From contig JBMNFY010000015.1 in the NCBI GenBank assembly GCA_050949565.1, positions 68,722-132,721 of the forward strand: a stretch of DNA of 64,000 nucleotides, read 5' to 3'. A model generated the notes under the pieces. That model was not told the origin of the DNA. It worked only from the letters and a program-made list of their open reading frames with translations, and searched no databases. Below, piece after piece: positions 13,172 to 52,486 of this stretch (position 1 is the stretch's first letter; each line of letters starts with the position of its first letter). Source of the DNA: Kiritimatiellia bacterium (GTDB taxonomy: Bacteria > Verrucomicrobiota > Kiritimatiellia > RFP12 > UBA1067). The position numbers and the translations under genes were made by a program.

Positions 13172-13405
13172 TTTTATCTGGATTTTCTTGCTCTCCCTCA
13201 TGTTCCCGTCGGGTGGGCTTTGCGGAGGACGCGAAGAGGTGCTCGCGAACGGCTGGACTCTTGACCTTTTGATCGAGCGGTTCAACCAGTGTCAAGAAAA
13301 GGCGATCGCCCACGATCTGGAGCACCCCCCGTCTAAAAACTGGGGGGGGGGGGACATATTTATGCAGGCTATTCGGTATGGTTGAAAAACTGGGCGACCG
13401 CGCAG

Positions 13406-13427
13406 TTTAGCAACGGGGTTGAGGAAA
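13406..13427 (+). repeat. Left-end putative transposase-binding site
   Basis: TTTAGCAACGGGGTTGAGGAAA; inverted near-copy at 51800-51820; degenerate copies near 13534-13554 and 51821-51841. Confidence 0.75.
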
Positions 13428-13569
13428 GGCTGAAAGAGGCTGAAAATGCCTGAAAAGGCCGGTTTTACGGGGTTTCTAGCGGGTGCTGGTGGCGTCTCGA
13501 CGCGGCGAGGGAAAACACCTTGAAAAACAACGGTTTGTCAATGGTTTGAGGAAACCTGTAGGGTAATTG

Positions 13570-13614
13570 AAAAGCCCCCGCGCGACCTTTGCAATGAGGT
13601 TGCACGGGGGCTTT
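13570..13614 (-). terminator. Rho-independent terminator of the early operon
   Basis: Hairpin AAAGCCCCCG...CGGGGGCTTT just downstream of the last early gene, with a U-run on the minus strand. Confidence 0.7.
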
Positions 13615-13634
13615 GGTGGGTGTTCTCGCGCCGA

Positions 13635-14288
13635 TCAGGACGCAGGCTTGACATCTTTGGGCGGCATGAGTCGAGCTATATCGAGGATGATTGGCTCTGG
13701 TTCGGCGGCTCGATCCGCTCGGTGCTCGACGTAGATGTAAGACTTGGATTGCGATGCGTACATCGAATCTGCGAGGAGTTCTTTTGCCTTGCGAAACTTC
13801 TCGCTCTTTAGATTGAGCTTTAGAATGCGCAACGCGGCAGTGCGGTTGATGCTACCGCTCGCTGTGTCGAGCAGACTATTCACGATCTGAACGATGTCGC
13901 TTTTTTCCTGCCCTTCGGTGAGTTCCGCAACAAACTCGTCGAGCAGACTCTTCGCGATTGTCGCACGTTCATCCATCGCACTGAACACGCGGTTTTTCAC
14001 GCGCACGGTAATCAGACCGTCATAGCTACTGACCGTTACGTTGCCGCCCTTCGCTTTGAAGTCGGTGACGTTGGCATCGGCCAGCGCGGCCTCTTCAAGC
14101 GTATCGAGATCGCGCAGGGTTTCAGCCTGCACTTTTTCAAGGTCGGCCCGTGCCTTTTCGTAACGCTTCAAAATGCGACGCACGATCTGGTCGCGCTTCT
14201 TATCGTAGGGCGAAACTAATCGGTTTGGGATTTCGTCGCCGAAGCGATCAATCATATACCCCGGACGTGCTTTGATTTTTTGTGACAT
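13635..14288 (-). CDS. DUF3164-like Mu-prophage protein
   Basis: GYMIDRFG...YDKKRDQIV...KGGNVTVSSYDG...SKSYIYV; typical position after MuB. Confidence 0.8.
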   Translation of the reverse strand: MSQKIKARPGYMIDRFGDEIPNRLVSPYDKKRDQIVRRILKRYEKARADLEKVQAETLRDLDTLEEAALADANVTDFKAKGGNVTVSSYDGLITVRVKNRVFSAMDERATIAKSLLDEFVAELTEGQEKSDIVQIVNSLLDTASGSINRTAALRILKLNLKSEKFRKAKELLADSMYASQSKSYIYVEHRADRAAEPEPIILDIARLMPPKDVKPAS

Positions 14289-14291: not shown

Positions 14292-15353
14292 TTACTCCTT
14301 TGTTTGTGAGAGGCGTTGGATGACGTCGTAGGCGACGACAAAGTGATCCCAACTCATTTCCTTTTTCTGCTTTGCCGCCAGATTACTGGCTGACTGCAAA
14401 AACTTGCAGAACTGACCGAGGCCAGATTGTTTGAGCATAGTGGCGATGATCTCGGCGGCATCACCGTCTGGAGGCGGCAAGCCGAACGCGGCGGCAAACC
14501 TGTTGATGTCGCTTTTCGGCGGGGTTGCTGGCAACTGTAGACGGATGATGCCTCGGCGGCGAAACTGCTCCAGAATGAGTGCGAGCTTGCCGGTCTCGAT
14601 CTCATCGCGAAACACCCGTGTGCCGCAAAACACGATGCCGCAACCGGTGCGGTCGTATAGCTCGCGCAACCACTCTATGATGCGCACCGCGGTCGCGTTG
14701 CTACTACTGATCAGCGGCTGGTGCATTTCATCAAAGATCAGCAGCATCTGATCGCTGATTGAGTCGAACACGCGTGTTCGTATCTCGCTCGATGACGCTT
14801 TCGCAGATATGTAGCAGGCTTTCGCGACCTCGCGCTGAATCTGCCAAAACGTCGGTGCTGCTGGCATGCGGATGTACTTGGTTTGACCGTGATTGTTGCG
14901 CCGCGTGAATTCCATCAAACAGCTCGTCTTCCCTATCTGTGAGTCGCCGAAAATGAACGCGGGCAGTTGACCGACTAGCGCGTGGCGGCAGACCTGATCG
15001 ATCTTTTTCCACGTTGATGTTTCTACGAACCCGATCACCTTGCGGTTACCTCGCGCGTCTGCGAGTTTGTGGTAGCGTTGCACCGCCTCGATGAGGTTGT
15101 CGTATCGTGCGCCGTAGCGACCCATAAACAACCTGTAGGCCGTGCTCGCGTCTTTGTCGATGGCTTTTCCAGCATCCTCCAGTGTCATTGAGCGATCCAT
15201 GCAATACGAATAGAACCACCAGATTTCGGCTTTGTCTGCCTCTGTGATTTCTCCATCCTCCAGCAGTCGTGCGAGTGCCGTTTGTACTTGATCGCCCGGG
15301 ATGCTCATGCGCTGAGACTGGGCTACGATTTTATCAGTGTCTTCCTTGCTCAT
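14292..15353 (-). CDS. MuB-like AAA+ DNA transposition ATPase
   Basis: Walker A GDSQIGKT, Walker B LLIFDE, LRELYDRTGCGIVFCG, QFRRR arginine finger. Confidence 0.9.
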   Translation of the reverse strand: MSKEDTDKIVAQSQRMSIPGDQVQTALARLLEDGEITEADKAEIWWFYSYCMDRSMTLEDAGKAIDKDASTAYRLFMGRYGARYDNLIEAVQRYHKLADARGNRKVIGFVETSTWKKIDQVCRHALVGQLPAFIFGDSQIGKTSCLMEFTRRNNHGQTKYIRMPAAPTFWQIQREVAKACYISAKASSSEIRTRVFDSISDQMLLIFDEMHQPLISSSNATAVRIIEWLRELYDRTGCGIVFCGTRVFRDEIETGKLALILEQFRRRGIIRLQLPATPPKSDINRFAAAFGLPPPDGDAAEIIATMLKQSGLGQFCKFLQSASNLAAKQKKEMSWDHFVVAYDVIQRLSQTKE

Positions 15354-15376: not shown

Positions 15377-17464
15377 TTACAAGAGGTCTGTCGTATCGGC
15401 GACGCTCAATGCATCGTCGTCTTGTTCCTCGCCGCCGGCGCAGAGGTCATCCAGCGTGACTCCCCGTGTGGCAGCGCGTCGCTCGGCGCTGACGGCTCGC
15501 TCGGCCTCGATACGCGCGGCCTCTGCCTGTCCGCCCTCGCGTAGTAGCGCGGCGTTTGTGCGCATGTCCGCGATCATTTCGCGGGCGCGTTTTACGCCGC
15601 GCCGTGCAACCGGAGCAATCGCCTCTGATAGCTCGCGTCGTGCAATACCGATCTCGCGTCCGACCGCGTCGAGATCAGCGCGATCAACGACATCCACGCG
15701 GTCACAGCGACCGACGTAGCGCCCCCACGTATCCGTGATGAAAATCCGTCGCGGATTAAATGGGTTGATCGTCCACAGGTACATCTCACCTTCTTTGAGT
15801 TGTACCTTTTCGCCTTCAGGCCCGACACATGTCGAGAGGCGGTAAATCTGTGGCCGACCGCTTTCGATGTCCTGATCGACGAACACCACCTCGGCGACAG
15901 CCGGACACGGCCGGGCCTGAGCGAGGTCATCGCCGCAGATCATGGTCACGGCCCAATCTGGCAAACGCACCAGATCGCGCTGCCCTTCCTCCCAAACCCG
16001 CGCCCGTGACTTTCGGGCGACCTGTGTGTTTCCGGGCATTGCCACGAGCGGTGCGAGACGATCTTGCACCTCATGCGGAAGCGCGAGAAACTCACACTCG
16101 CTGTGCCAGAGATCGGCGGGGTGGACGCGCCACTGCCGCTCAGTTCGATTGTGCCATCCCTCTAACGTGTGGTCACTGCTCCACGCGATCTGCGCATAGA
16201 CCTCATGCACCACGTCGAAAAACGTTGTCCAGTCCAACACCGGAAAGCGCATGCGTTCGGCGAGTTCTGGCGGTAGCGTACAAGATGCGGCGAGCATCTT
16301 GTCCACGACCTTGCACAACGCCTCGTGGTCTTCCGGCTTGTCCAAACGCGCATTGCTGCCGGTGTAGCCCGGCAACGCATCGAGCCGGTTCTGCGCGAGG
16401 TTGTGCCACGACTCAATGTGCGCTTTATGATCGGGATTGCCTTTCGTGTCGTAACCCCACTTGCCGAGCGGGATTTGACGATCCACACCGGACGTGCTCA
16501 CCGTGATCTTGCCGTCGCTCAATTCGTGCAACACCTTTTTCAGGCGGTCGCGAATGGCCGCCGTACCACCCTCCACGAGTAGCAGACAACCGTCTTTGTG
16601 GTAGCCGATATTCGTGAGGACGTGCGCCACGAGGAACCGCATGTCGGCCTCGGTGATATTGCGCCGTTTCCCGTCTTCATCCTCCATGCGCGGCTTGAGC
16701 GCGAACGCGATTTTGTTGGCACTTGCAATGTCGATGCAAGCCAGTTCCAGCGGGCGCACGGCCTTGGGATAGCCACGGCACACGACCTTGCAGTTATGCC
16801 ACATGTCATCAAATTCGTACTGTTGCCCCGGTAGCAGATTCTCGCGCGTGGTGTGAACACGCGCGGAGAATTTCCGTGCGGCATGCGGCCCACGCCGTGC
16901 GGCGACGGTCTCGATCCGCTTCGGCTTGTGCCGCATCATATTCCAATACGACCAGCCCGGAGGCAACGGCATACCGGGCGGGCACTTCGGCGGCATGGGC
17001 TTCGAGCGTAGCTCAGGCAACGCCTGCCACACGCGCCTCCAGTCCACGTCGCCGATCATCTGCCCCGACTTGTAGTTTGCCGCCAGCTCGATGTAGGCGC
17101 TTTTCATCGAGCGCGGATGCTGGTCGCAATAGGTGCGCCACGCTTCGATCACGGCGGGCGTGATCCACTCAGCCTTGCCACCGCCGGTGGTCTTGGCCGC
17201 GTTCACCAGCGCCCGCCAGTCGCCGGTGTTTCGTAGCGCGTAGAATTTGCGCTCCAGTGATTTGAATGACCATCCCGGCTTGTGTCGGTTTCGCGTGGCC
17301 GCGTCTGCCAGCGCCGTGCGCGGACGTGGCGCGACAGCCGCAGTACGGAAAACCTCTAGGAGATCCAGCACCTCCCATTTCACCTCGTCGGGTAACTGAG
17401 CGAATTCGGCGGCGTCCCGCTCAGGGACGCACGCGCCTGCAATGAGTTGAGTTCCCGTCATCAT
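15377..17464 (-). CDS. MuA-like DDE transposase
   Basis: 695 aa directly upstream of MuB; PGQQYEFDDMWH first-Asp motif; GNPDHKAHIESWHN Glu motif. Confidence 0.8.
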   Translation of the reverse strand: MMTGTQLIAGACVPERDAAEFAQLPDEVKWEVLDLLEVFRTAAVAPRPRTALADAATRNRHKPGWSFKSLERKFYALRNTGDWRALVNAAKTTGGGKAEWITPAVIEAWRTYCDQHPRSMKSAYIELAANYKSGQMIGDVDWRRVWQALPELRSKPMPPKCPPGMPLPPGWSYWNMMRHKPKRIETVAARRGPHAARKFSARVHTTRENLLPGQQYEFDDMWHNCKVVCRGYPKAVRPLELACIDIASANKIAFALKPRMEDEDGKRRNITEADMRFLVAHVLTNIGYHKDGCLLLVEGGTAAIRDRLKKVLHELSDGKITVSTSGVDRQIPLGKWGYDTKGNPDHKAHIESWHNLAQNRLDALPGYTGSNARLDKPEDHEALCKVVDKMLAASCTLPPELAERMRFPVLDWTTFFDVVHEVYAQIAWSSDHTLEGWHNRTERQWRVHPADLWHSECEFLALPHEVQDRLAPLVAMPGNTQVARKSRARVWEEGQRDLVRLPDWAVTMICGDDLAQARPCPAVAEVVFVDQDIESGRPQIYRLSTCVGPEGEKVQLKEGEMYLWTINPFNPRRIFITDTWGRYVGRCDRVDVVDRADLDAVGREIGIARRELSEAIAPVARRGVKRAREMIADMRTNAALLREGGQAEAARIEAERAVSAERRAATRGVTLDDLCAGGEEQDDDALSVADTTDLL

Positions 17465-23107: not shown

Positions 23108-23767
23108 TCAGCGTTGTGTAACGTTGTAGCAGTCCAGCTCCCTGAGCGCGGCGGCGAGCGCCGCCCTGATGCGCGCGTACTGGGCACACTTCCGGCGCGG
23201 GCGCGCCACGGCGTGGCGCGCCTGCCGCTCGTCGAATCCCATGCGCCTGCACCAGCCGCTGAAGCTCGCGCCGCGCGCCTTGAAAAGCCGGAGGATGTCC
23301 TCGTAGGACGCCCCGCCGCCGGCCGCGCGCGCCGCCCTGCGGTCAGCCGCTCGGTGCGCCGCGCCGCGCCCGGCCTCGGCCTCCGCCGCCATGCGGATCG
23401 CGCGCCCCGTCATCACAAGCCCGCCCTCCCGGGACTCGCCCGCGTACAGCCCCGCCGCCCCGCTGATCTCCAGCGCGCGCCGCTCCACCGCCGCCACGCT
23501 GAGATGTCGGTACGCCGGCCGCGCGGCCAGCCATGCCCGCGCCGTCGTCAGCCCCTCATCCGCCTTCCACGCCTCCCACGCCCTCACGAGTTTCCGGTAT
23601 TCGTTGATCGTCATTTCCCGCCCTCCGTGCTCGTCCTGTTGCACCAAACGCTTGCGCCGGCCATGCTTCCGCTTGAGGTTCTGATAGCAGGAGAAAAGCC
23701 CCTCCGCTATTTCCGGAGTGAGGTCGTAGACCTCTCCCATCACGATCAGCCGGTTCCTGCCTCTCAT
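23108..23767 (-). CDS. Phage protein with C-terminal Ner-like HTH (possibly two genes read through)
   Basis: LFKARGASFSGWCRRMGFD; internal GGAGG plus ATG at MTINEY. Confidence 0.5.
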   Translation of the reverse strand: MRGRNRLIVMGEVYDLTPEIAEGLFSCYQNLKRKHGRRKRLVQQDEHGGREMTINEYRKLVRAWEAWKADEGLTTARAWLAARPAYRHLSVAAVERRALEISGAAGLYAGESREGGLVMTGRAIRMAAEAEAGRGAAHRAADRRAARAAGGGASYEDILRLFKARGASFSGWCRRMGFDERQARHAVARPRRKCAQYARIRAALAAALRELDCYNVTQR

Positions 23768-23943
23768 ATCGCGCTCTCTTCCAGCCGGATGCCCAGCCGC
23801 TTCAGTTTCTTTTCAAGCTCTGGCCCCGCCTTGCGCTCGCCGCGCAGTACCCGCGATAGGTGGCTCTGCGAGACGCCGACCAGCCTCGCCGTTCGCGTGA
23901 CCCCTCTAAAAAGCGTCACCGGCCTGATTGTCTGATTCATCAT
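23764..23943 (-). CDS. Cro/Ner-like HTH regulator, 59 aa (not in ORF track)
   Basis: MMNQTIRPVTLFRGVTRTARLVGVSQSHLSRVLRGERKAG...; first gene of the early operon; divergent from the repressor once the IS is removed. Confidence 0.75.
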   Translation of the reverse strand: MMNQTIRPVTLFRGVTRTARLVGVSQSHLSRVLRGERKAGPELEKKLKRLGIRLEESAI

Positions 23944-24054
23944 GGGTGTGTGTCAGATTCGTGACGTGAAAATCAGATTGCGCTTGCGTGGCGCATGTGG
24001 ACGCGTTATATTTTGTAGCGGTTTAACTACAAACAATCTAACGAAAGGACACCT

Positions 24055-24378
24055 ATGGAACTTCCCCAGATATTCGCGGAAATCGCAGCCAGCATCCCGG
24101 CCAGGCGCGGCAGGCTCTTCGAGCAGTATTCGACCAGGACCGCCGCCGACGGGACGGTCCGGCGGACGGGGCCCTACTACGTGCTTACGCGGTCCGTCAA
24201 CGGCAGGACCGTCTCGGAGCGGGTCAAGGCCGAGGACGCGCCCCGCGTGCGGGAGGAGATCGAGCGCGGGGCGAGGCTCGCGGCGCTCTTCGAGAGGATA
24301 TGGGAGATGGCGGAGTGCGCGGCGCGGCAGGCCCGCGACCCTAAAAAAAAACAGGGCCGGACGGCACCCCGGCGCTAG
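24055..24378 (+). CDS. IS accessory ORF (DUF6788-like)
   Basis: GPYYVLTRSVNGRTVSERV; ends just after an A9 run. Confidence 0.65.
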   Translation: MELPQIFAEIAASIPARRGRLFEQYSTRTAADGTVRRTGPYYVLTRSVNGRTVSERVKAEDAPRVREEIERGARLAALFERIWEMAECAARQARDPKKKQGRTAPRR

Positions 24379-24467
24379 GGCGCATTGAGGCGGCCGCCCT
24401 CGATCTCGTCGGCGCCGCCGTCAAGGCCGAGGCCGACGCGCGGAGCGGAGCGCGGGACCTGAGCGAG

Positions 24468-25694
24468 GTGGAGGGCGACCTGCGCTCGGCGGCGCTGTCC
24501 TTCGCGGCGAAGGCGCTCGGGGCGCTCATGTCCGGCCCGCTCCAGCAGGCCGCGGGCGTGGACGCCCCGGCCGGCCGGCGCGGAACCAGGACCGAGACGG
24601 TGCTCACCAGCGTGGGGGACGTGCCCTACACGCGGGCATACGTCCCCGGCGGCGACCGGCCGTTCCCGGCCGACGAGGAACTGGGGCTGGTCTGCCGGTG
24701 CACGCCGTCCGCAGCGAAGCTCCTCTGCCACGAGGCCGCCCGCAGCCAGTCCTACCTGCAGGCCTCGGAGAGCCTCGCGCTTTCCGCCGGCATCTCGGTC
24801 TCCGCCAGCAGCATCCACCGGCTCGTGCGCGCCGTCGGCCCGGACATGGAGGCGTGGGCGCTCTCCCGCACGCCGTCGCCCGCGGAGCCGGGGCGCGACG
24901 TCATCGTCTGCCTCCAGATGGACATGACCGGCGTGCGGATGCTGAAGCGGTATCTCAAGGGCGCCAGGGGCAGGGGCGGGGGGGATCCCAAGGGCCGCCA
25001 GATCAAGTGCGGGACGCTCTTCCTGATGGAGCGGGACGCCGAGGGCCGGTACCGGCGGATAAGCGGCAGCGCCGTGCACGTGATCTCCTTCTGCGACCCC
25101 GTGTCGTTCTCCGACGCGCTGGAAAAGGCGCGGCAGAAGCTCGCGGCCCCCCACGGGGCCACGCTGGTCGTCGTCGCGGACGGCGCGGAGTGGATCTGGA
25201 ACATCGTCTCGGACCGCTTCAAGGAGGCGTTCAGCATCATCGACTTCTGGCACGCCGCCGACCGGCTCCACGACCTCTGCGAGTTCGCCCTGGGGAAGGG
25301 GGACGCGGCGCAGGCGCTCTTCAAGGAGTGGCGGAAGAAGATGAAGGTGTACGGGGTGGACTGCGTGATCCGCCACTTCGAGGGAATGGAGGGCTCCCGG
25401 AGGAAGCTCAAGGGCGTCGCCAAGCGCCTGGCGTACTTCAAGAGGTACCGCGGGCAGATGCAGTACCGCAGGTTCCGCCGCGAGGGATGGCCGATCGGTT
25501 CCGGCGCGGTCGAAGGCGCCTGCAAGTCGCTGATCAAGCAGCGCACGAACCTCTCGGGGCAGCGCTGGTCGCCCGACGGCGCGCTGGACGTGCTCTGGGC
25601 GCGGGCGCTGATCACCGACGGGCTCCATGACGAGTACTGGAAGGAAAAACGGAGCCGCGAGGGGAAGCGCAGAGAGCCCGTGTTCGCGGCGTGA
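24468..25694 (+). CDS. ISKra4-family DDE transposase (true start uncertain)
   Basis: ADGAEWIW, IIDFWHA, GWPIGSGAVEGACK, SGQRWS. Confidence 0.85.
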   Translation: MEGDLRSAALSFAAKALGALMSGPLQQAAGVDAPAGRRGTRTETVLTSVGDVPYTRAYVPGGDRPFPADEELGLVCRCTPSAAKLLCHEAARSQSYLQASESLALSAGISVSASSIHRLVRAVGPDMEAWALSRTPSPAEPGRDVIVCLQMDMTGVRMLKRYLKGARGRGGGDPKGRQIKCGTLFLMERDAEGRYRRISGSAVHVISFCDPVSFSDALEKARQKLAAPHGATLVVVADGAEWIWNIVSDRFKEAFSIIDFWHAADRLHDLCEFALGKGDAAQALFKEWRKKMKVYGVDCVIRHFEGMEGSRRKLKGVAKRLAYFKRYRGQMQYRRFRREGWPIGSGAVEGACKSLIKQRTNLSGQRWSPDGALDVLWARALITDGLHDEYWKEKRSREGKRREPVFAA

Positions 25695-25809
25695 CAGCGG
25701 AAACAGCGGAAACGATGTTACGAATCTGACACACACCCTTCATCATCCTTATCCTTTCCTTCGCATGATCTCGGTGCTATCATGCCGCCTGTCATGCGTT
25801 ACGGCGGGG

Positions 25810-25839
25810 ATGTTACCGCATAACTCGGTAATATGTCAA
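25810..25839 (-). promoter_or_regulatory. Putative early promoter with an overlapping palindromic operator
   Basis: Minus strand TTGACA-N18-TAACAT; TTACCG-N7-CGGTAA palindrome at 25813-25831. Confidence 0.65.
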
Positions 25840-25857: not shown

Positions 25858-26178
25858 GTGGAAAGTTCTTTTGGCGCAAAACTACGTGAATTGAGAGGTA
25901 CGCAATCACAATCTGCGGTGGCTGCAGTTTTTGGAATTGCTCAGCAAACATACGGCGGATGGGAGAAAGATCAGCGACGACCCGACTTAACCGAGCTTCG
26001 CAGGATTTGTACGCATTACGCGGTATCCGCTGATTGGTTGCTTGGGTTGAAGCCCGCTGTCGATAAGCGTGCGGCGGATGCGGAAGCCAGACTCCGAGCG
26101 GCGCATGATGCGTTCTTTAAAGTAACAGAAGCCGTGAACCTGTTAGGGAGGTCGCTACATGACGCAGAAGGGTTTTAG
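25858..26178 (+). CDS. XRE-family prophage repressor
   Basis: FGAKLRELRG...SQSAVAAVFGIAQQTYGGWEKDQRRP...VSADWLLG; GTG start after GAGG. Confidence 0.85.
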   Translation: MESSFGAKLRELRGTQSQSAVAAVFGIAQQTYGGWEKDQRRPDLTELRRICTHYAVSADWLLGLKPAVDKRAADAEARLRAAHDAFFKVTEAVNLLGRSLHDAEGF

Positions 26179-28116: not shown

Positions 28117-28117
28117 C

Positions 28118-28478: not shown

Positions 28479-28988
28479 ATGATCGAGACGAAAATCAAAT
28501 CAAACAGCCTCTACAGCCGGATGCTCAAGGCCGGTGTGCTGGATGATTTTTTCGGCCTCGTCGCGTCCGAGGCTCCCGGCTACGAGGAGATGCGCGCGTG
28601 GTGCGAAGAGCATGATATCCGCGCCAGCAACGGTGCCCTCCACACGCTGATCACGCACCACATGGGCGCGTGGCGCGCCCGCAAGGCTATCGAGGCTGTG
28701 CGTGAAGAGGAGCTGTCCATCCCCGCCGATGCTGACGAGCAAATCCGCGAGCGACTGCGCGGGATGCGGCTTGATCTCGCGCTGCGCGATCTCTCCGAGC
28801 GCACCGCCGTCGCGCTCCTGAAGCTCGATTTACAGGAGCGCGAACTGGCTCACAAAAATGCGTCGCTGCGCGAGACCGGCGTTCAGGCGCTCATGGATGA
28901 AGCGCGCGGCAACGCCGCCGCAGAGGAGGCGCTGCGCGCGTTCCTTGCGGCGCTCGATGCCGCCCGCTCGGAAGGGGGTGACGCATGA
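28479..28988 (+). CDS. Probable small terminase subunit (Mu gp27/DUF3486-like)
   Basis: Helical protein ATGA-coupled to the large terminase; YEEMRAWCEEHDIRASNGALH HTH-like segment. Confidence 0.55.
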   Translation: MIETKIKSNSLYSRMLKAGVLDDFFGLVASEAPGYEEMRAWCEEHDIRASNGALHTLITHHMGAWRARKAIEAVREEELSIPADADEQIRERLRGMRLDLALRDLSERTAVALLKLDLQERELAHKNASLRETGVQALMDEARGNAAAEEALRAFLAALDAARSEGGDA

Positions 28989-30988
28989 AGCCGTCCTCTA
29001 TCCGTGACCGCATCCGTGATGCCGTGGCCGAGACCGCTCCGGCGGTCAGCGTGCCGGAAGTCTCGTCGCTGCGTGAGTTCCTTCTCAATCACTGCCGCGT
29101 CAAGGTCGGCTCGCACTACCAGCCTTACGACATGGCCGGACGCCCCGCGCTGGAACTCGCCACGCAGTGGGTGGATGACATTCTCGCGGGCGGACGCGCA
29201 GACTGCCGCATCAAGATCAAGGGCGGGGCGCAGTGGGGCAAGACGGTGTGGGCCACCAACCTCTACGCCTATCTGCTGGGGGTGCGCTTCCTCGGCGTGG
29301 GTTACTATCTACCAGATCAAGCGCTGGTCGACGGCATCGTCGATACCAAATTCCGGCCGGATGTTGTAGACCAGATTCCGTGGTTTGCCTCGCTCCTGAA
29401 AATCGGCAAGACCGTGAATAAATCCGGACGCGCCGTCGACCGCAAGGGCGCGGTGATGGCCACGGACGGGCGGCGCGTCGCACTCGGTTATTTCCTCGGC
29501 ACCAACCGCGTGCCGACGACCTACACGCACGACGTGCAGATCGTTGACGAGCGCGACGACATCAACGAGAAAAATGAGAAGTTCCTTGACGGGCGCTTGA
29601 CCTCCAGCCACGTCCGCCTGCGCATCGACATCGGCACCGCGCGCTATGACAAGGCCGGCATGGACATGGAGTTCGAGGACTCTACGCAGCACTGCGCGGT
29701 GATCGCCTGCACGGGCTGCGGTGCGGAGATCTCTCCGGAGGATGAATGGCCGGGCGTCTGCCGTCTGCAGACGGGCGGCGCGCCCTCTCCCGACGACCCG
29801 CGTCTCACGCTGGCCGGCGACTTCAAATCCGCCGGCGAGGAGGGCGCGACCGTCGCCACGCACAAGCCTGGCAACCGCTACTATCTCGCCTGTCCGTATT
29901 GCGGCGCCGCGCTGGATCGCGCCGCCGTGGCCTACAAGCCGCGCCGCCCCGAGATGGCCGCGCTCGGCAAGTTCGGCGTCGAGGTCTCGCAGATCGCCAC
30001 GCCCGCGATCGGCCTCACGCAGATCGTCGCCGCGTGGGCGTCCGCCGTCGCCGATCCCGATAAAATGACTGCCTTCCGTTGCGACCGCTGGGCGCGGCCG
30101 AAGAGCAGCACACAGGGGCTGGACTCCGGCATCCTCGACCGCTGCCGCGAGGACTACGCGCTCAGCGTGGTGCCCACCGGCCTGCCGCGCTTCGGCGGAC
30201 TCGACACCGGCGACCGTCTCTGGCTCGTCGCGCGTGAGAGCGAGAGCGCCCTTTGCAAGCGCTTTGCATGGGCTGAGCAACTCAGTCCGGCGACCGCCCG
30301 CGTCCGTGTGCCCCAGCTCTTCGATGCGCTCGGCCTCACCTGCCTTTTTGTCGATATCGGCAACGAGCGCGAGATGGCGCGCGACATCGTGCGTCTCATC
30401 AACCGGCTCGACAACGCGCCGCCGATCCGCGCGGAAAACAAGTCAGGCCGCATCGACTTCGGCGGCGGTCTCGTCTGGGACGGCACGCGCTGGCGCGGGC
30501 TTCGCGCCGCGTGTGTGGAGTTCTCGCTCAAGCCCGGCGGCGGGATCGTCCACGAGTTGCGCCTCACGCAGGAGGGACACGCCTATCCCGTGATCCGCGC
30601 CAACCGCGACGAGACCATCCAGCGGGCAATCGATGAGTTCCTCTGCTACGACGACGGGCTTGTCGCGGTGGTCGACGGCAAGATTCGCACCGCGCCGGTC
30701 ATGCGCATGCCCGCCGCCTCGCCCGGTTGCGCGGAGGCGGTAAACGTCATGTCAGAGCATTTCATTTCCGGCTCGCGCAAGGTCACATCGTCGGACGGCA
30801 AGACACTTAATTTCATCGACGGCGTCGCAAACCACTACCTGCTCGCGAACGCCTACAGCGCACTCGCTGAGACGGTGGTCGCGGGCGAGTCGATGCACGT
30901 CGGCTCACAGAGCGCAGGGCGCGTGACCGGCATGATCGACGGCGTCGCGCGCGGGAGTTTGGATGCATTCGGAGGGCCGCTCTTGTGA
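28985..30988 (+). CDS. Terminase large subunit, lambda GpA-like
   Basis: KGGAQWGKT Walker A; IVDERD Walker B; ACTGCG and ACPYCG Zn fingers; GGLDTG nuclease motif; NHYLLA. Confidence 0.8.
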   Translation: MKPSSIRDRIRDAVAETAPAVSVPEVSSLREFLLNHCRVKVGSHYQPYDMAGRPALELATQWVDDILAGGRADCRIKIKGGAQWGKTVWATNLYAYLLGVRFLGVGYYLPDQALVDGIVDTKFRPDVVDQIPWFASLLKIGKTVNKSGRAVDRKGAVMATDGRRVALGYFLGTNRVPTTYTHDVQIVDERDDINEKNEKFLDGRLTSSHVRLRIDIGTARYDKAGMDMEFEDSTQHCAVIACTGCGAEISPEDEWPGVCRLQTGGAPSPDDPRLTLAGDFKSAGEEGATVATHKPGNRYYLACPYCGAALDRAAVAYKPRRPEMAALGKFGVEVSQIATPAIGLTQIVAAWASAVADPDKMTAFRCDRWARPKSSTQGLDSGILDRCREDYALSVVPTGLPRFGGLDTGDRLWLVARESESALCKRFAWAEQLSPATARVRVPQLFDALGLTCLFVDIGNEREMARDIVRLINRLDNAPPIRAENKSGRIDFGGGLVWDGTRWRGLRAACVEFSLKPGGGIVHELRLTQEGHAYPVIRANRDETIQRAIDEFLCYDDGLVAVVDGKIRTAPVMRMPAASPGCAEAVNVMSEHFISGSRKVTSSDGKTLNFIDGVANHYLLANAYSALAETVVAGESMHVGSQSAGRVTGMIDGVARGSLDAFGGPLL

Positions 30989-32500
30989 ACAATCTGATCA
31001 GGCGCATTTTCAAGACGGAACGCCGTCGGTCGACGCCAACCGCGTGACGCAGCACATGATGAGTCTCTGGTCGCCGTTGGAGATGCTCACGCCGCGCTCG
31101 CTTTCCGCCGCGCTGGCCCAGCTCCGCGCCGGCGACCTGCAAGCCTACGCGCGGCTGTGGGACGACGTGCAAGGAGCGCGACGACATCCTCGCCAGCGTC
31201 GTCCCAAAGCGCAGCCAAGAGCGTCTCGCGCCTCTCGTGGGAGGTCATCGAGCGCGAGGACTCCGCCGCCGCCCAGCGCCAGTGCGAGATCGTCGAGAGT
31301 TTCCTGAACACGCTCACCTACACCGACGTCATGGATGCTGACTTGAGGCGGCGGTTTTTCCGCGCTCATTCGCGGCATGATGCATGCGGTCGGCTACGGC
31401 TGGAGTGTGCAGGAGATTGTCTGGCGTCCGTCGCCTGCCTGTCTCTCTGCCGAGTTCATACAGGTGCCGTTGCAGTTTTTCGAGCGTCGCTCCGGACGCC
31501 TGCGCTTCCTCGCTTCCGAGGGTGCGTACACCGGCACCGACCTGGAGGACGGCGGCTGGCTCGTGACTGGCGTGCCCCGACCGCCTCGCGATCGCCTCGC
31601 TCGATCCTCTACCTCTTCAAGCACACGCCGCTGCGCGACTGGCTGATCTACTGCCACCGCTACGTGGTGCCCGGACTGCACGGCAAGACCAACGCGAAAA
31701 AAGGCGACGACGATTGGAACGATCTCCACGACACCCTCGCGCACTTCGGCCAAGACTGGGCGATGCTAACTGGGAAGGAAGTTGAGATTGACACCATCGA
31801 CTCCAGCGCCAAAGGCGAACTGCCCTATCCCAAACTGGTCGACCGCTGCGACCGCCGCATGACCGCCATCTGGCGCGGTGCCGATCTCTCCACCATGAGC
31901 GCGGACGACGCCACCGGCGCAAGCCTCCAGCAGGGCGAGACCGACCTGCTCACCTCAGACGATGCCGAGATCGTCGCCGGTACGCTCAACGCGCGGCTGA
32001 TTCCCTACGTGCTGCGCTATACGCTCGGCGATGTGCCGCAGCTTGTGGATATCGAGATTCAGTGTCCCAACCCGCAGACCGAGCAAGCACTCAAGATCGA
32101 CGAGGCACTGATCGGCTGGGGCGTCGAGCAATCCAAGGCCGACCTGCGCAAACGCTACGGCCGCCCGGCTCCCGACGACGGCGATGAGGTCGCCGCGCCG
32201 CCGGCCAGCCAGCCGCTGTTGCCAGTCTCCCCTGCGCCGAACGCCGCCGTCGGACGCGCACCGCAAGCCGCTTTCACGGCGCTCGCGGCCGACCTGCAAC
32301 CGCTGCGCGCGCGCATCGAGCACGCGCTCTCTCTGCCCGACGGCGAGATGGAAGACGCGCTCCATGCGATCACGCAGGAATCCGGGGCGCTCTTCAGGCT
32401 GATCGACGATTCAGGCGCACTGCCCGCCGTCCTCGCGCGTCGCGCCGCGCAAGCGTTTGTGGACGGCATTAAACACCAAGAGGAAGATCAAGATGCGTAA
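30985..32500 (+). CDS. Portal protein (Mu gp29/DUF935-like), several frameshifts
   Basis: LTPRSLSAAL; HAVGYGWSVQEIVW; LRDWLIYCHRYVVP; LVDRCDRRM, found in different frames. Confidence 0.8.
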
Positions 32501-34206: not shown

Positions 34207-35160
34207 ATGGATAAACTACTGCGTGAGATCGACATCTCCTCTCCCAGCCACGGGCTGGTCTGTCTGGCTAATACGGCCAGCTTCAACAACACGCACTTCT
34301 CTGAGCCGCTGACCACCTACGCTCAGGGCTGGCGTGATCCGAGCAACCTGCAAGGTTTTTTGGACTTCCTGTTTCCTCCCGTGCAGGTGCCGCGCCGTTT
34401 CGAGTTCAGGAACTTCGGCGAGTCGTCCGACTTCCTCTACGACACCGACGACGCGCGGTCTCCGGGCGCTGACTTCAAGCGCGTGAAATACACCGGCTCG
34501 ATTCAGCAGAGCAAAACCACCAATCGCGGCCTGACCGTTTTCGTGGACGAAGACGAAGTGCGCGACCAGCCCGGCTGGCAGGAGCTGTACACCGGACGTC
34601 TGCTGCGCCGCTCGATCCGCAACAATCTGGTCACGGCGTGTGGCATGATCGTCGCCGCCGCAGACAACACCGCCAAGACGTGGGGCGCTGAAAGCGATCC
34701 CGACGCTGACCTCATCAGCCTCGTCGATGGCGCTGGTGACCTCATCGGCTTCAATCCCAACCGCCTCGCGTTTTTCGGTGCGGCATGGACGAAGCGCATC
34801 GTGGCCTCTCGCGGTAAGAACACGGCGGGCGCAATCGCGTCGCTGAATCTCTCCACCGCTGATCAGGTCGCGCAGTACGTGGGCGCACAGCGCGGGACGG
34901 TCGTCAACTTCCGCGTCAAGAGCGCCGCCGGCAAGGGCAAGGTCAGCGGCAACACCGTCGTCGCGTTCTACGCAGAAGACGGCGCAGGCCCCGAAGACCC
35001 CAGCCACACCAAGCGCTTCTGGTCGCCGTGCGGCGACGGCACACAGTACCGCGTGTATGTCCGCCAGTACTCGGAGAAGCTCTGGGCGATCACCGTCGAG
35101 CGCTATGTGCAGCTTGTAGTCACGAGCACCGTCGGACTCAAGAAATACACCATCAGCTAA
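34207..35160 (+). CDS. Major capsid protein
   Basis: 317 aa; LTTYAQGW...LFPPVQV...RSPGA; synteny. Confidence 0.7.
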   Translation: MDKLLREIDISSPSHGLVCLANTASFNNTHFSEPLTTYAQGWRDPSNLQGFLDFLFPPVQVPRRFEFRNFGESSDFLYDTDDARSPGADFKRVKYTGSIQQSKTTNRGLTVFVDEDEVRDQPGWQELYTGRLLRRSIRNNLVTACGMIVAAADNTAKTWGAESDPDADLISLVDGAGDLIGFNPNRLAFFGAAWTKRIVASRGKNTAGAIASLNLSTADQVAQYVGAQRGTVVNFRVKSAAGKGKVSGNTVVAFYAEDGAGPEDPSHTKRFWSPCGDGTQYRVYVRQYSEKLWAITVERYVQLVVTSTVGLKKYTIS

Positions 35161-35169: not shown

Positions 35170-35625
35170 ATGGCGTGGCGCGCAATCACAGACAATGACA
35201 TCGATGCGGTGCTCTCCTCGTCCGAGCTTGCCTCCATCCGGGCGCAGGCCACCGAGGGGAACGATCCCATCGCCGACAGCATCCGGCTCGTGACCGATAC
35301 CGTGCGCGGCTACATCTCCGCGCATGCGGCCAATCGTCTCGGCCCTGCCGGTACGCTTCCGGAGCGGCTCATTGATGCCGCGCTGTCGCTGTTTGTGGTG
35401 CGCGTCTACAGCCGTACCGCCGGCTTGCTGATTGATCTCAACGATACCCGCAAAGAGGCCGCCAAGAGCGCCACCGAACTGCTGCGCGATGTCGCCGCCG
35501 GCCGCTTCGCGGTCGAGCTGCCCGCCGAGGGAACAACATCCGAAGAGGACAACAACGCCTCGGCGGTGCAGCTCGTCACCCACTCAGCGCGGCCACTGCG
35601 CCGCGACGATCTCTCAGGACTATAG
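35170..35625 (+). CDS. Mu gp36/DUF1320-like head-tail connector
   Basis: VRGYISA...LLRDVAAG; synteny. Confidence 0.7.
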   Translation: MAWRAITDNDIDAVLSSSELASIRAQATEGNDPIADSIRLVTDTVRGYISAHAANRLGPAGTLPERLIDAALSLFVVRVYSRTAGLLIDLNDTRKEAAKSATELLRDVAAGRFAVELPAEGTTSEEDNNASAVQLVTHSARPLRRDDLSGL

Positions 35626-44545: not shown

Positions 44546-45145
44546 ATGTTAGACATCCAAGTCAACCTCGACGGATCAGGCGCAATCGGCCTCCTGCGCA
44601 AATTGCAGTGGTCGTTTCAGGGACGCGCCGCATCCCGCGGTGTTGGCGAGGCATGCGCGAAACTCACACGGGATCATCTCTGCCGCATCGCGTCTAGCCG
44701 TCACCGCTCCGGTCTGGCGCGCAACTTCTACGCGCGCGCCGCCGATGCCGTCGTCTCCGAGCCAGTCTCGCACGGCGCAATGATCACGATCCCGCACACC
44801 GGCCTTGCGCTACGCTACTACGGCGGCACCGTGCGCCCGAGCGGGCGCGTCTCGCTCGTCACCGGCCGCCCGATCAAGCGCTTGGCGATCCCGATCAAAG
44901 GCCGCGGCGCGGAAGGCAGACTGCCGAAGGACTTCAAGGGGCTTTTCGTCGTGGCCTCCAAACGCTCCGGCAAGGCGGTGCTGGCCGGTCGCGGGCCGTC
45001 CGGCCTTGTCCGTGCGCTCTTCACGCTGGTCAAATCCTCAACGCACAAAGCGGACAAGAGCGTCCTCCCCACTGACGACCAATACACGGCTGCCGGTGCC
45101 GATGCGCTCGACGAGCTGTTAGCGGAGACGATCAATGGCTTCTAA
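44546..45145 (+). CDS. Mu gpG-like virion morphogenesis protein
   Basis: Basic protein; YYGGTVRP...RLAIP; follows MuF. Confidence 0.55.
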   Translation: MLDIQVNLDGSGAIGLLRKLQWSFQGRAASRGVGEACAKLTRDHLCRIASSRHRSGLARNFYARAADAVVSEPVSHGAMITIPHTGLALRYYGGTVRPSGRVSLVTGRPIKRLAIPIKGRGAEGRLPKDFKGLFVVASKRSGKAVLAGRGPSGLVRALFTLVKSSTHKADKSVLPTDDQYTAAGADALDELLAETINGF

Positions 45146-47156
45146 AGACATCAAGATTCTCATCAAGACCCTCGCCGACGTGACCGGCATCTCGCGCGTC
45201 ACGGCCGCCTGGCGCAAATGGGCTGCCGACCACAAGGTCGGCGCCGCCGCCGTCACCGCGTCGCTGCGCGGTTTGGCGGCAGCAGCCAAGGCATCATTCT
45301 CCGCTTTCGCCGCCGCCGGACGCGCCGCTTTCAACGCCGTTTCACACGGCATGCAAACCGTGCGCAACGCCGCCATCGGTCTCGGCGTCGGCATGGGCGG
45401 CGCGGTGCGCGAGTTCTACACCTGGAACAAAGAGGCCGCCCGCGCCTGGGCGCTCATGGACATCGGCAAAGATGAGTTCGTCCAAATGCGCACAGAGATC
45501 GCCGACATGTCCGCAGAACTCGGCGTCGCAAAAGACGAGCTTGGGAAAGGCTGGACGCTCGCCGCCGGATCAGGCGTCGAGAACAACGAGATCGTCCGCT
45601 TCCTGCGCACCGCCGCAAAGGTCGCGATCACGGACGGCTCGGACATCGAGACCGCGATCAACGGCATGACCAGTGTGCTCAACGCATTCGGCTACCAATC
45701 AGCAGACGCCGCGCGTGTCACCGATATGCTGTTCAGCAATGTCGACCGAGGCAAGTCATCCTTCCACGCCCTCTCGTCATACATCGCTCAAGCCGCGCCA
45801 ACAGCCGCCGCGCTAGGCGTCGGCCTCGACCAGATTCTCGCCGCAGAAGTCCATCTCAGCAAACAAGGCTACGCAACCAGCACTGCCTACGTCGCTATCC
45901 GAAACGCTATGCTCGCACTCAGCGACGAGCTAGGCGACGGCTGGGCCAAGACCATGACCTTCCAAGAGGCACTGCAAAAAGTACGCGAGGAGGCCAACGG
46001 ATCAGAGACCGCGCTCGCAAAAATCTTCGGCGACCGCACCGTCGGTGCTGTGCTTGCAATGACCGGTGAAAACGCTGCCAAGGCCGCCGAGGAACTGGCA
46101 GCCATGCGCAACAGCACTGACTCGCTGGGGAACGCCTACAGCAAGGTAGATTCCGAAATCCAGCACTGGCCCAAGCTCTGGCAATCGCTGCGCCTGCTCG
46201 TCTCCAACATCGGCGAGGCCATCGACACCTCGCTGCGCCCGGCCATTGATTACATCACAGAGAAACTCGGCAATCTCACAAAAGGCGATGGTTTCGCGGC
46301 AATGGCCCGCCGACTGGGAGACGCGATCAGCAACGCCGCCGCCAAGCTCATCGCGGGCGTGCAGACCGCTGTCGATGTCCTGAGCCGTGCCACGCTCGGC
46401 GGCGTCATCGCCGGCGCAGTCGGTGCGCTCGTCGACACCGCCATCACCCTGCTGGCCGAAGGTCTCCGCGCGCTCGGCGTCGTCGTGCGGGCGCTGGCGA
46501 AAATATTTGCCTCCGCGCTGGCAGAGGACATGATGAAGATCGACCTCCCCTTCCGCAACGAGGAAAAAGCCGCGCGCGAGGCCGCCATCCGCAACCTCAT
46601 CAACCTCACACCCACGCAGGCCGCCGCGTTCGGCATCCCCAAAGAATTCATGGAGCGCGACGCCATCATGTCGCCGGCGCAACTCAAGGCGCGTCAGAAG
46701 CGCATGCAGGAGTGGGCGTCCGGACTCAGCCTCGATCAGGCCGCAGCCATCGCCACCGCCACCCGCGACTCTGACATCAACGCCGCGCTCGCTCAGGCCA
46801 CTGATTCTTTCGGTGCCGCCCGCGGCCGCATCGAGGGCGCAGGCTCGCGTATCATCTCCGACCTCTCGCGTCGCACGGGCACAGATATCTCCGCCGCCTA
46901 CCAGCGCAACCTCGGCGCGGCCATGTCCATCGCCGGCCCTGTCCAAGGGCCGCCCGCGCCGCCGCAGCAGCCCGCCGCCGCTCCCGCCGCAACCGCACAG
47001 GCATCCGCCTCAAGCGCAGAAGTCGTCGCGGCCGCGCACAGCGCGCGCGACGCGCAGCGCGACACCTCCGCCGAGCTGATCTCCACTCTAAAGGACATCA
47101 AACACGAGCAACGCATCCTGCGCGAGCAGATCAAATCAATACGTGCGAGGGACTGA
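45135..47156 (+). CDS. Tail tape-measure protein (TP901-like)
   Basis: SVLNAFG...AARVTDML...GKSSF...APTAAALGV; Ala-rich helices. Confidence 0.85.
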   Translation: MASKDIKILIKTLADVTGISRVTAAWRKWAADHKVGAAAVTASLRGLAAAAKASFSAFAAAGRAAFNAVSHGMQTVRNAAIGLGVGMGGAVREFYTWNKEAARAWALMDIGKDEFVQMRTEIADMSAELGVAKDELGKGWTLAAGSGVENNEIVRFLRTAAKVAITDGSDIETAINGMTSVLNAFGYQSADAARVTDMLFSNVDRGKSSFHALSSYIAQAAPTAAALGVGLDQILAAEVHLSKQGYATSTAYVAIRNAMLALSDELGDGWAKTMTFQEALQKVREEANGSETALAKIFGDRTVGAVLAMTGENAAKAAEELAAMRNSTDSLGNAYSKVDSEIQHWPKLWQSLRLLVSNIGEAIDTSLRPAIDYITEKLGNLTKGDGFAAMARRLGDAISNAAAKLIAGVQTAVDVLSRATLGGVIAGAVGALVDTAITLLAEGLRALGVVVRALAKIFASALAEDMMKIDLPFRNEEKAAREAAIRNLINLTPTQAAAFGIPKEFMERDAIMSPAQLKARQKRMQEWASGLSLDQAAAIATATRDSDINAALAQATDSFGAARGRIEGAGSRIISDLSRRTGTDISAAYQRNLGAAMSIAGPVQGPPAPPQQPAAAPAATAQASASSAEVVAAAHSARDAQRDTSAELISTLKDIKHEQRILREQIKSIRARD

Positions 47157-49085: not shown

Positions 49086-49115
49086 TTTTTTGCAAGAAGA
49101 GAGGAGAAACGACCC

Positions 49116-51395
49116 ATGTCAACCGTACTACGAAACATTCCCCATGCCCGATTTATCAGGCAGGCACGCTCGCCGAAAATGGCGCTGGTGTCCACGCAAG
49201 CGGCGCTCGACCAGGCGATTGAATCGCTCAAAACCGCCCCGTGGCAACGCGCGAGGCCGGGACTGACCGTCACCATGCCGGCCAGCGACCCCACGCAGAC
49301 CGCATCGTCAGAAGCCTACGACGCTTACAAGTTTTCTGGCGACTGCATCCCGCAGAGCGGCGAGCAAGCCGCGTTTGTCGGCATGGTCGCGTACAGGTTC
49401 AAAATCCCGTCCGGTGCGCTCGGCAATACACCGGTCACGCAGGTGGAACCTACGACCAGCGTGCGCTTGTACGCCAATAAGTTTTTGAGTGCCGGACTGC
49501 GTATCGCCGCATTTACGAGCAATGATGCCGACCCTAACATGCTCGGCTCGTGGGAACACATGCGCGGCGAGGTTGCAGGAAGCGGCGTGGGGTTTGTTGC
49601 CGGCCTGTTTGCTAACGAAGACGCTGGCACCAAGCGCGCCTCGAACCAGAGCGCCATCGTCTGCCCGCTACCATCCGGCGCGCCAGCCGCGCAATATCTC
49701 TGGATCATCGTGCAGCTCGAGGATTGGGCAGAAATTAAATGGGAGTATTGGATCGAGGGGGCCGGATTTCTGGAAGCGGATACCCTCTCTCTCGTACTCT
49801 CGAAAGACGGCGTCGAGCTGGACGAAGAGGGCGAGGAGTTTGTCTTCCCCGTCGCGCCGCAGGACTTCCATGAGCCATCACGGGTGTATGGTTTGGCGGC
49901 GTTGCCCCATGCTGGATTTGTCGGCCAGCTGTGGGGGGCATCAGGCGCACAGTTCGGTCGTGCGGTTGTGGATATTGCACGGATCGACTACTACAAAATC
50001 ATGGTGCTGGATGCCTTCGGCCACCTCAGCGTCTTCGACATCAACACACAAAAATACACTGAGCCGGACAGCCGCTTCATTCGCGATGATGCGAGGCCGG
50101 TCAAGGTCTGGGGTGAGATGGGAATCGACAACACCTTCGCCGTGCTGGTGCTCTACGACGATGGCAGCGTGCGCGCGAGAAAAAACAACTACACCGAATT
50201 TGCTGCAACCGCCGCATCACTCTCCGGCGTGGTTGACGTAGCCACGGATGGATGCAACGTGATCGTCAAGCTATCCAACGGCGAATATCAATCATTCAGC
50301 TATAATTCCCCCAGCTTGACTGCGGCGTTCTCATTCGCACCAACCTCGCCCGTCATCAAGGCCAGTATCTTTTCGGTCAATGAATCCACCTGGGTGGCGT
50401 GGTTTTTATGCGCGGACGGGAAGGTGCTCGCGAGCACCGGAACAGTCCTGCGCGCGAACGTGGTAGACATCGCCGCCTGGCGCAGAGGTGCGGCGATGCT
50501 GTCGGCCACCGGCACGGTATACGCTCAGGGAAACGACGACATGGGGATCGTCACCGACTGCGCCTCCCTGTCCGGCATCACACGCATCTGGGCAGGTATC
50601 GACGGGCTGGCCGCGCTCGGTGCAGACGGCACACTGACCGTCCTCGGCCTCAATAAATCTGAGGCCATGTCAAACCGTCCGGGCATTGATTTCCGCAACG
50701 CGGCCAAGATCACATTCGGGGGCGAGGGCGAAGATCCGCCAGCCCATCTGCCGCAGGTGTTGCATGATTCCCCGCAACTCCGCTACCGCTGGGATCGCTC
50801 AGAGTACCTCTCGGCTCCCCGTGATTTTTCGGCGGACGGCATGTTCGACAGCGACGCCTCGCGCGATACGCTTGTGCGCCTCGCAGTGTCCGGCGACGGC
50901 ACTCTAAGGCACGCGCCCTACGCAGGCACCGGCGCATACGGGATCGCCGCCAACCCGCAGACCGGCGGGCTGAGCATCACGGCATCTGCCGTTGGACTGA
51001 GGTTCAGCCGCCGCGCGACCGATTTGACGCCGACCAAGTTGCACTACTCATTGCCCGCGTTGCCGCACGGAGCAGGATCGCAATCGCGCTACATCCGCGT
51101 GGTCGCGCTGCTCGATCAGCATCCTGCTCCCGTCAACCCCATCGCAACGGCGGATGGATTCCGCACTATCTGGAGCGGTGCCGTGCCCGAGGGCTACCAG
51201 ATACTGGGTTCAGAATACCTAGAGCACAAAGGGTTTGAAAACAGCCGCTTCCTGCCGATTGCGGCGACGCCGTTCCAAGGCGTGATCTGGCTCATAGTTT
51301 TGCCGGTTCACTTGGAATTGAGCGGAGATTCACTTGCATTCAATGTAGAGGGAGACGGGTTTGCCGCCCAGCATGTTTTCTTGTACCGCGACTAA
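49116..51395 (+). CDS. Probable receptor-binding/tail protein with RCC1-like repeats
   Basis: GVVDVA, NVVDIAA, GTVYAQG and ADGTLTVLG repeats; last late gene. Confidence 0.5.
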   Translation: MSTVLRNIPHARFIRQARSPKMALVSTQAALDQAIESLKTAPWQRARPGLTVTMPASDPTQTASSEAYDAYKFSGDCIPQSGEQAAFVGMVAYRFKIPSGALGNTPVTQVEPTTSVRLYANKFLSAGLRIAAFTSNDADPNMLGSWEHMRGEVAGSGVGFVAGLFANEDAGTKRASNQSAIVCPLPSGAPAAQYLWIIVQLEDWAEIKWEYWIEGAGFLEADTLSLVLSKDGVELDEEGEEFVFPVAPQDFHEPSRVYGLAALPHAGFVGQLWGASGAQFGRAVVDIARIDYYKIMVLDAFGHLSVFDINTQKYTEPDSRFIRDDARPVKVWGEMGIDNTFAVLVLYDDGSVRARKNNYTEFAATAASLSGVVDVATDGCNVIVKLSNGEYQSFSYNSPSLTAAFSFAPTSPVIKASIFSVNESTWVAWFLCADGKVLASTGTVLRANVVDIAAWRRGAAMLSATGTVYAQGNDDMGIVTDCASLSGITRIWAGIDGLAALGADGTLTVLGLNKSEAMSNRPGIDFRNAAKITFGGEGEDPPAHLPQVLHDSPQLRYRWDRSEYLSAPRDFSADGMFDSDASRDTLVRLAVSGDGTLRHAPYAGTGAYGIAANPQTGGLSITASAVGLRFSRRATDLTPTKLHYSLPALPHGAGSQSRYIRVVALLDQHPAPVNPIATADGFRTIWSGAVPEGYQILGSEYLEHKGFENSRFLPIAATPFQGVIWLIVLPVHLELSGDSLAFNVEGDGFAAQHVFLYRD

Positions 51396-51768
51396 AACCA
51401 CCAACCGGCAAGGCCTTAAAGATCCGCGAGGCAGACTCACGCTCGCCTTTGGCGAGCTGGCTTTCGAGACTGGACGCTCAATACACAAGAGCACCCCGGT
51501 GTCCGGCCGTGCCGCAGCGACGCAGAAGAGTTCGTAGGAGAATCCGCGCTCGACATCGTGAAGAGAATGATGGCCGTGCCCTTTGCCGCGCAACTCACCC
51601 CGCGCGAATTCATGGTTCAGACGTTACATCGCTTAAGCCCCCACAAAAGCCCTTCATTGCCCGACGACGACGCCAGCGCGGCCACGGCTTACATCGACCG
51701 CCTGATCGCGCTCGGCCTCGCAGAGCGCATTTAAGCGCCCGTTTCAATCCCCCTGCAAAAACAAATCA

Positions 51769-51802
51769 GGCCGCTTGCAAAAACCCTGCAAGCGGCCGTT
51801 TT
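51769..51802 (+). terminator. Hairpin terminator at the prophage right end
   Basis: GGCCGCTTGCA-AAAACCC-TGCAAGCGGCC-GTTTT. Confidence 0.65.
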
Positions 51803-52486
51803 CCTCAACCCTTTGCTAAATCTCCTCACCTTGCGTGAAAACCCTCGACCGGGAAGCCCTCCCGTTTTTGGAGGAGAAAAGCTTCATGACGAATGCTCCT
51901 AGTTTTATCCGTGGACGCGCTGCTGAAGTGTATGTCAAGATCGCGGATGTGGAGGAGTGCATTGAGTTCATGAGAAAAGCTTTTGGCGTCAACGATGACA
52001 AAGGTTTTTGGCGTTTTTCGGTCAGCCGTCAATTCTTGGCAAAAATCGGAGCCGCTTTCGACGCCGAAGAAACCTCGGATGCGATCAAACAACGCGCGTT
52101 GCTCATCCTTCTCGAACACATGCAAGCACCGGCAAATCCCTCGGAAGCTTCTAAAATTGACGAGTTTTTGGCTCAAAAGTGCGAGGGTTACCGTCAAAGC
52201 TGGCAACGAATGGATGTGGCCCAACGTTTTCTCGGAGGCGAAAATGAAAAGGTGGACAGGCACTACAGGCTTATCCATGAAAGTGTTACGCAATTTCCCC
52301 CGGAACAGCGCATCGATTTGCGTAAGCGTTTCCCCGATCTGCCGCCGTTGCCGGATGACGTGCCCGCTAGAGGCCGCATGAAAGTCGCGTTCGCCATCAT
52401 CGCGGGGTTTGTCGCGCTCGCGGTGTGCGCTGTAGCGGCGTGGCTCGCCGCTCGGCGGAGGAAGGTGCGCAAAGCGGCGTGACAGC

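Follow-up and report, generated by a model that had tools for sequence, protein, structure and literature searches.

How does a Mu-like transposase cut its element when that element does not end in TG...CA? The question is raised by a prophage in a stretch of 64,000 nucleotides (nt) from a Kiritimatiellia bacterium (assembly GCA_050949565.1, contig JBMNFY010000015.1, positions 68,722 to 132,721), referred to here as the window, in which positions are counted from its first letter. Conservation of a terminal CA extends from Mu as far as HIV integrase, with Tn7 and IS21 included. The prophage spans positions 13401-51847 (36,644 bp without and about 38.4 kb with a host insertion sequence (IS) that it carries) and is Mu-like in its RNase H-fold (DDE-type) transposase and AAA ATPase, its Mu-type head genes, its genome size of 36-39 kb and its insertion at sites unrelated to one another. 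A preliminary description of the window had found no register giving TG...CA, and this was borne out: the tips are CG...CG. It had also proposed a target duplication of 5 or 6 bp and a right end at ACCCT(C), neither of which held. Very probably, this is a CG...CG-tipped Mu-type prophage whose MuA-like transposase binds the repeats at its ends and nicks at a fixed distance, the stagger and the duplication being most likely 4 bp.

Ends of the window prophage and its most likely 4-bp target duplication

The hexamer CGACCG is present on both sides of the prophage, at 13395-13400 and at 51846-51851. Evidence on the junctions came from assembled contigs of seven public runs, of which X16 has no coverage of the right end and X15 is possibly near the source of the window DNA. 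On the left, a phage contig of run X12 begins exactly at 13401, with two further left flanks. In locus L070 the same phage lies within a host IS, and after the break the empty site has G where the junction has C; in L077, an insertion of a related phage, the empty site continues with T instead of the phage C. These results confirm a left end starting with CGCAG, as first described. The related phage, 75-84% identical in DNA near the left end, starts with CGCAG at two sites (L032/L071 and L077).

On the right, the junction of a second insertion in X12 (site 2) reads CCCTCG followed by ACGCACAG, a flank that is single-copy in the host genome and whose empty site reads GGACAAGGC ACGC ACAG. Ahead of ACGC, the host has C but the junction has G and, therefore, the phage reaches at least to the G at 51847. 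Since site 2 keeps a terminal CG that is absent from the empty site, the right-hand CG is phage DNA. The duplication at site 2 is at most 4 bp (ACGC), with 5 and 6 bp excluded by the empty site, and the right end initially proposed lies 1-2 bases too far inside, the true end being 51847. The repeat in the window appears to be 6 bp long because the target there happened to have CG ahead of ACCG. When the left and right ends were compared without gaps, 15 of 27 positions were identical with the right end at 51847, against 5-11 of 27 in eight other registers. The duplication in the window is, therefore, most likely 4 bp (ACCG).

A Mu- or B3-type duplication of 5 or 6 bp, with ends CGCAG...ACCCT(C), would agree with the 6-bp repeat seen when the window is taken alone and with a gene order resembling that of B3, whose duplication is 6 bp (PMC8705779). 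We regard this as very improbable, because CCCTCG is kept at site 2 where the host reads AAGGC, which contradicts it unless the contig is chimeric, and because the repeat is exactly 4 bp in six of the eight relatives with resolved ends. A duplication of 3 bp with relaxed tips and a right end one base longer (...CCCTCGA) fits with the A that is the first duplicated base at both mapped sites of the window phage, and we consider it improbable: the agreement between the ends would drop from 15/27 to 8/27, and chance matches would be required at both sites and in all eight relatives, where the first base of the repeat is C, G or T.

The window junctions were found in six of the seven runs, spanning six studies: the left one was crossed without differences by contigs of X5, X6, X7 and X12, and the right one by contigs of X11, X12 and X15. 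The metagenome loci L072 and L080 show the same right junction. The same phage is present with identical tips at no fewer than three distinct sites (the window, site 2 of X12, L070 and a third left flank in X12). Assembly errors, or mutations after insertion in a dead prophage, might be suspected from the host IS that heads the early operon of the window copy and from a window site that is common to many runs, as with an old lysogen. Given the recurrence of identical junctions in six runs and of the same tips at several sites, the CG tips are neither assembly error nor post-insertion decay, and this explanation is hardly credible.

The claim that excision restores the reading frame of the host gene was verified locally. 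A single CGACCG without any indel is present in one paralogue of the same genome and in homologues of G002 and G006, so that removal of the element restores the local frame, with MVEKLGD joined to REALPFLEEKS. The frame of the interrupted gene is separately shifted, as a G tract just upstream of the site (13342-13353) is 2 nt shorter than in the paralogues, and one X12 contig has one G fewer still; this is possibly phase variation in a tandem family of surface-like proteins. The L077 insertion hit a paralogue of the interrupted gene at a point 14 bp from the site of the window, which hints at an insertion hot spot. On the left, the prophage is adjoined by a multi-copy host IS (DDE_Tnp_1, 11730-13171) with at least ten near-full copies in the genome. 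Contig G000:C14 opens with the final 14 nt of the prophage, continues along the right flank over 12 kb (98.6%), and represents either a second haplotype or an assembly overlap. A search of the window for tRNA genes gave none.

Ends of related prophages

The repeats reported at the ends of the window prophage were found where they had been described (Table 1). They are putative transposase-binding sites, arranged asymmetrically between the two ends: left sites lie at 0, often at about 84, and at 124-127 nt, and right sites at 0 and 21-22 nt. Mapping the ends and duplications of related prophages had been proposed as a check. Both end regions were compared for 19 relatives, and the eight that were resolved showed mixed tips and a repeat of 4 bp each: G057 (TG...CT), G072 (CG...CA), G317 (AG...CA), G229 (TG...CA), G069 (CG...CT), G214 (TG...CA), G241b (TG...CA) and G223 (GC...TG). 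In all eight, the repeat was present in the 27-nt register, the chance rate of a 4-mer match being 0.55%. It could not be extended in six, and in G072 and G229 it extends to 6 and 7 bp off register.

Among the 18 ends of the window phage and these relatives, the 5' dinucleotides were TG (9), CG (4), AG (3), GC (1) and CA (1), with G at position 2 in 16. Single elements carried two different tips in the combinations TG/AG, CG/TG, AG/TG, CG/AG and GC/CA. Single left ends placed by register only were CG in L018 and L019, CA in L014, L015 and L024, and AG in G207. In a leave-one-out end profile blind to the duplication, applied to eight prophages (G223 was outside the test), right ends ranked first in 8/8, and left ends ranked 1, 1, 3, 2, 1, 1, 25 and 4 among roughly 8,500-10,000 positions, that is, within the top four in seven. 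TG...CA ends in reads or relatives had been named as grounds for rejecting the unusual tips; they were not seen for the window phage, even if TG accounts for half of the mapped ends (9 of 18).

A TG-type right end was seen in G353 and L026, for which no matching left end was found, and no right end could be located for L014 or L015. The contig of G207 stops inside the right end, and the right regions of G156 and G122 fall beyond their contigs. Scans with end motifs gave mostly chance matches, as among 60 metagenome loci six held real ends and the viral scan gave one in 61; a second viral end pattern yielded, among 63 loci, just two records that were already known. Pairing candidate ends blindly, on 27-nt identity together with a duplication, was abandoned because each genome yielded chance pairs by the hundreds or thousands.

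In three of the eight resolved relatives, one end lies 16-21 nt downstream of the 3' end of a tRNA gene (the left end in G057 (L156), the right end in G072 (L161) and G317 (L163)). A tRNA-Ser is close to a candidate end in G284 and G347; the window phage has no such tRNA. One relative (G241:C1:811395-843684) lies within a spacer of an array of clustered regularly interspaced short palindromic repeats (CRISPR), with repeats on either side.

A transposase family with a predicted D-E-E triad

The structural model of the transposase TnpA (predicted local distance difference test (pLDDT) 81) gave MuA (4fcy, E 5.8e-14) as best Foldseek match, followed by TnsB and IstA. Its predicted catalytic triad is D219-E298-E351, i.e., D-E-E rather than D-D-E. 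D219 was aligned with D269 of MuA in a weak alignment (probability 0.4), and E298, which closes a predicted strand, with the aspartate of the MuA motif ITIDN, which we take to be the catalytic D336. The three residues are invariant in 26/26 family rows. In a wider alignment, which held 159 stretches drawn from the query and 150 representatives, E298 was Glu in 149/149 ungapped rows, and D219 and E351 were likewise invariant (148-149 ungapped rows for the triad).

The family comprises 844 clusters (50% identity, E up to 0.001), with a tight group of 34 listed proteins around the window TnpA at 46-96% identity. When 401 genomes from the phylum of the host were sampled, family matches turned up in 40, and the closest transposases stand in records titled Lentisphaeraceae, Kiritimatiellia and Opitutia. 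A tblastn search of 50,697 GenBank phage records gave no match to TnpA. In a quick version of the transposase tree, which omits B3 and places MuA on a long branch, sister branches differ in their tips (G214 vs G223, and G072 vs G317).

How the ends might be cut

By analogy with Mu, the transposase would bind the end repeats and assemble on them as a tetramer. Nicking of the 3' ends would follow, always equally far from the outermost repeat and irrespective of the tip base, and strand transfer from the 3'-OH would join them to target DNA with a 4-bp stagger, as the 4-bp repeat implies. Target capture would be assisted by TnpB and transposition would be replicative, again as in Mu. The tip base differs from element to element and even between the ends of one element, whereas its spacing from the outermost repeat is constant; distance is, therefore, what likely sets the cut, and G at position 2 in most ends implies that some tip preference remains. 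We infer that this transposase family is marked by relaxed tips and a shorter stagger; the D-to-E change may be related to both. We lean, with some reserve, towards a family of D-E-E transposases that ignores the terminal base, cuts by a ruler from the outermost site with a 4-bp stagger and in part targets positions beside tRNA genes. The earlier proposal, a clade of transposases whose tip specificity is different or relaxed, is supported: CG was found at independent sites and TG, CG, AG, GC and CA in relatives.

Each transposase might instead read its tips strictly, the enzyme of the window phage being specialised on CG and tips and enzymes co-evolving. The closest relatives have CG (L018, L019) or CA (L014, L015, L024) as left tips by register, none of them TG, and the prevalence of G at position 2 would also be in agreement with such reading. 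Single elements with two unlike tips speak against it, as do the differing sister branches of the quick tree, and we consider strict reading rather unlikely.

Several points weigh against relaxed tips and a 4-bp stagger. The junctions are supported by assembled contigs rather than raw reads. The left junction of site 2 comes from a loose-end consensus in which two X12 contigs are mixed and the last three letters are masked; by hand count, 22 of its 30 letters agree with the empty-site stretch that closes with ...GGCACGC, and all mismatches are the alphabetically earlier letter, fitting a tie-break. Both sites open with AC, which formally allows the 3-bp duplication with the longer right end. 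The catalytic assignment combines a model with the weak alignment to MuA (probability 0.4). For the relatives, ends were positioned from repeats and register rather than from empty sites, three of them by eye, and the left ends of G317, G072, G214 and G241b were picked partly with the duplication in view. Ends were not resolved in 11 of the 19 relatives (G231, G353, G347, G101, G241a, G022, G284, G207, L024, L025 and L026), and L024 has CA at both ends in register with non-matching flanks and an off-register 5-bp repeat, GCAAG.

Gene content of the window prophage

As shown in Table 1, the early genes are transcribed toward the left end, in the fashion of B3, with a divergent repressor in the interior. 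The IS inside the prophage has a 99.9% copy at G000:C17:358802-360597 and presumably belongs with ISKra4/ISLre2-like elements, judging from its motifs; a Pfam search with it gave no match. It lies where the first early gene has its start codon, parting the gene from its ribosome site and promoter region, and may silence the window copy of the phage. No match to Mor/C or GemA was obtained among the scanned open reading frames (ORFs), many small ones of which fall in no family. The product of a late gene (43207-44484) has a weak C-terminal match to the PBECR3 nuclease, below the cut-off, and may combine a head-morphogenesis protein with an antibacterial nuclease in one fusion. The tail region contains a GDSL lipase/esterase gene (40721-41731) with homologous DNA at G000:C17:1402153-1403919, and a nearly identical pair of long hairpin-forming repeats (27600-27690 and 28395-28480) flanks the genes of 27409-28396.

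Table 1. Features of the prophage and its target site (window positions)
Feature	Positions	Strand	Evidence or remark
Left copy of the most likely 4-bp target duplication, ACCG	13397..13400	+	
Left end (5'-CG) with putative terminal transposase site L1	13401..13427	+	Contig branch at 13401 in X12; empty sites of L070 and L077
Internal left-end repeat	13528..13554	+	127 nt in (relatives: 124-127 nt)
DUF3164 protein	13635..14288	-	Pfam PF11363 3.5e-31; phrog_846
TnpB, MuB-like AAA ATPase	14292..15353	-	phrog_296 2.7e-17; AAA_22, TniB
TnpA transposase, 695 amino acids, MuA-like fold	15377..17464	-	phrog_310 1e-15; predicted structure
Small ORF heading the early operon, putatively Cro/Ner-like (by eye)	23764..23943	-	
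Host IS, foreign to the phage	23944..25738	.	1,795 bp; 8-bp duplication TTCATCAT
Repressor (HTH_3)	25858..26178	+	Family scan of the longer ORF 25627-26178
Terminase large subunit	28985..30988	+	phrog_675 4e-28
Mu-type portal	31157..32500	+	PF06074 5e-32
Mu-like head protease	32815..33738	+	PF10123; phrog_328
Major head protein	34207..35160	+	phrog_1005 7e-5
Mu gp36-like adaptor	35170..35625	+	PF07030
Tape measure protein	45135..47156	+	phrog and Pfam scans
Second right-end repeat R2	51800..51820	-	
Right end (5'-CG on the minus strand) with putative terminal site R1	51821..51847	-	Site 2 and register
Right copy of the most likely 4-bp target duplication, ACCG	51848..51851	+	

Significance and comparison with known systems

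The role of the terminal CA is too poorly understood to predict the effect of other tips (PMC8705779), and a direct comparison would come from a natural MuA-like enzyme that acts on CG, AG, GC and CA tips, staggers its cuts by fewer bases and has Glu in place of Asp in its active site. Duplications of 5-6 bp are cited for transposable phages, and the short-core search of ProBord begins at 5 bp (PMC13626063). Since border-mapping tools assume 5-6 bp, members of this family would be missed or mis-bounded, as in the preliminary description. The window phage could also yield a genetic tool of the mini-Mu type for a phylum that has few.

With Mu, the window phage shares the MuA-like fold, the AAA ATPase partner, the Mu-type portal, protease and gp36, a size of 36-37 kb and asymmetric repeated end sites. 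Mu, which cleaves at CA with a 5-bp stagger (PMC3562280), begins with TG, whereas the window phage has CG...CG, 4 bp and Glu at the second catalytic position; its early genes face the left end, and the similarity to MuA is confined to N-terminal domains (E 4e-11). With B3 and BcepMu, it shares an early operon of TnpA and TnpB directed toward the left end and a divergent interior repressor. However, B3 begins with TG and makes a 6-bp duplication (PMC8705779), and its TnpA barely matches the family of the window transposase (E 0.0012; hhalign probability 0.2).

According to PMC8705779, duplications are 5 bp in Mu and 6 bp in B3, and ends were TG-CA in all earlier cases, with TA-TA ends in 28 Leptospira prophages. 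The latter, compared here by published description only, are likewise active transposable prophages without TG...CA, but have a fixed TA at both ends, a 6-bp duplication and a D-D-E triad (PMC8705779). No 4-bp case stands in the available parts of PMC10122671, PMC5977238, PMC7430833, PMC7761591 or PMC12135933, and a search covering part of the literature gave no published 4-bp duplication or CG tips for a transposable phage. Sp18 of E. coli O157:H7 Sakai resembles the window phage in its 4-bp TAAA duplication and TG...TA ends, confirmed against the empty sorM site, and differs in its Mu-type gene order and in a transposase outside the family (E 5e-6, N-terminal stretch only). The copies of its duplication are at L251:4967-4970 and 43726-43729, with which the annotated boundary of 4972-43730 disagrees.

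TnsB of Tn7 and IstA of IS21 are structural relatives of the window transposase from elements that are not phages, and IstA, like many DDE enzymes, cleaves at a terminal CA (PMC10122671). Neither odd tips nor a 4-bp duplication is unique on its own; what appears to be new is the combination, across one family, of freely varying tips, 4 bp and a predicted D-E-E enzyme.

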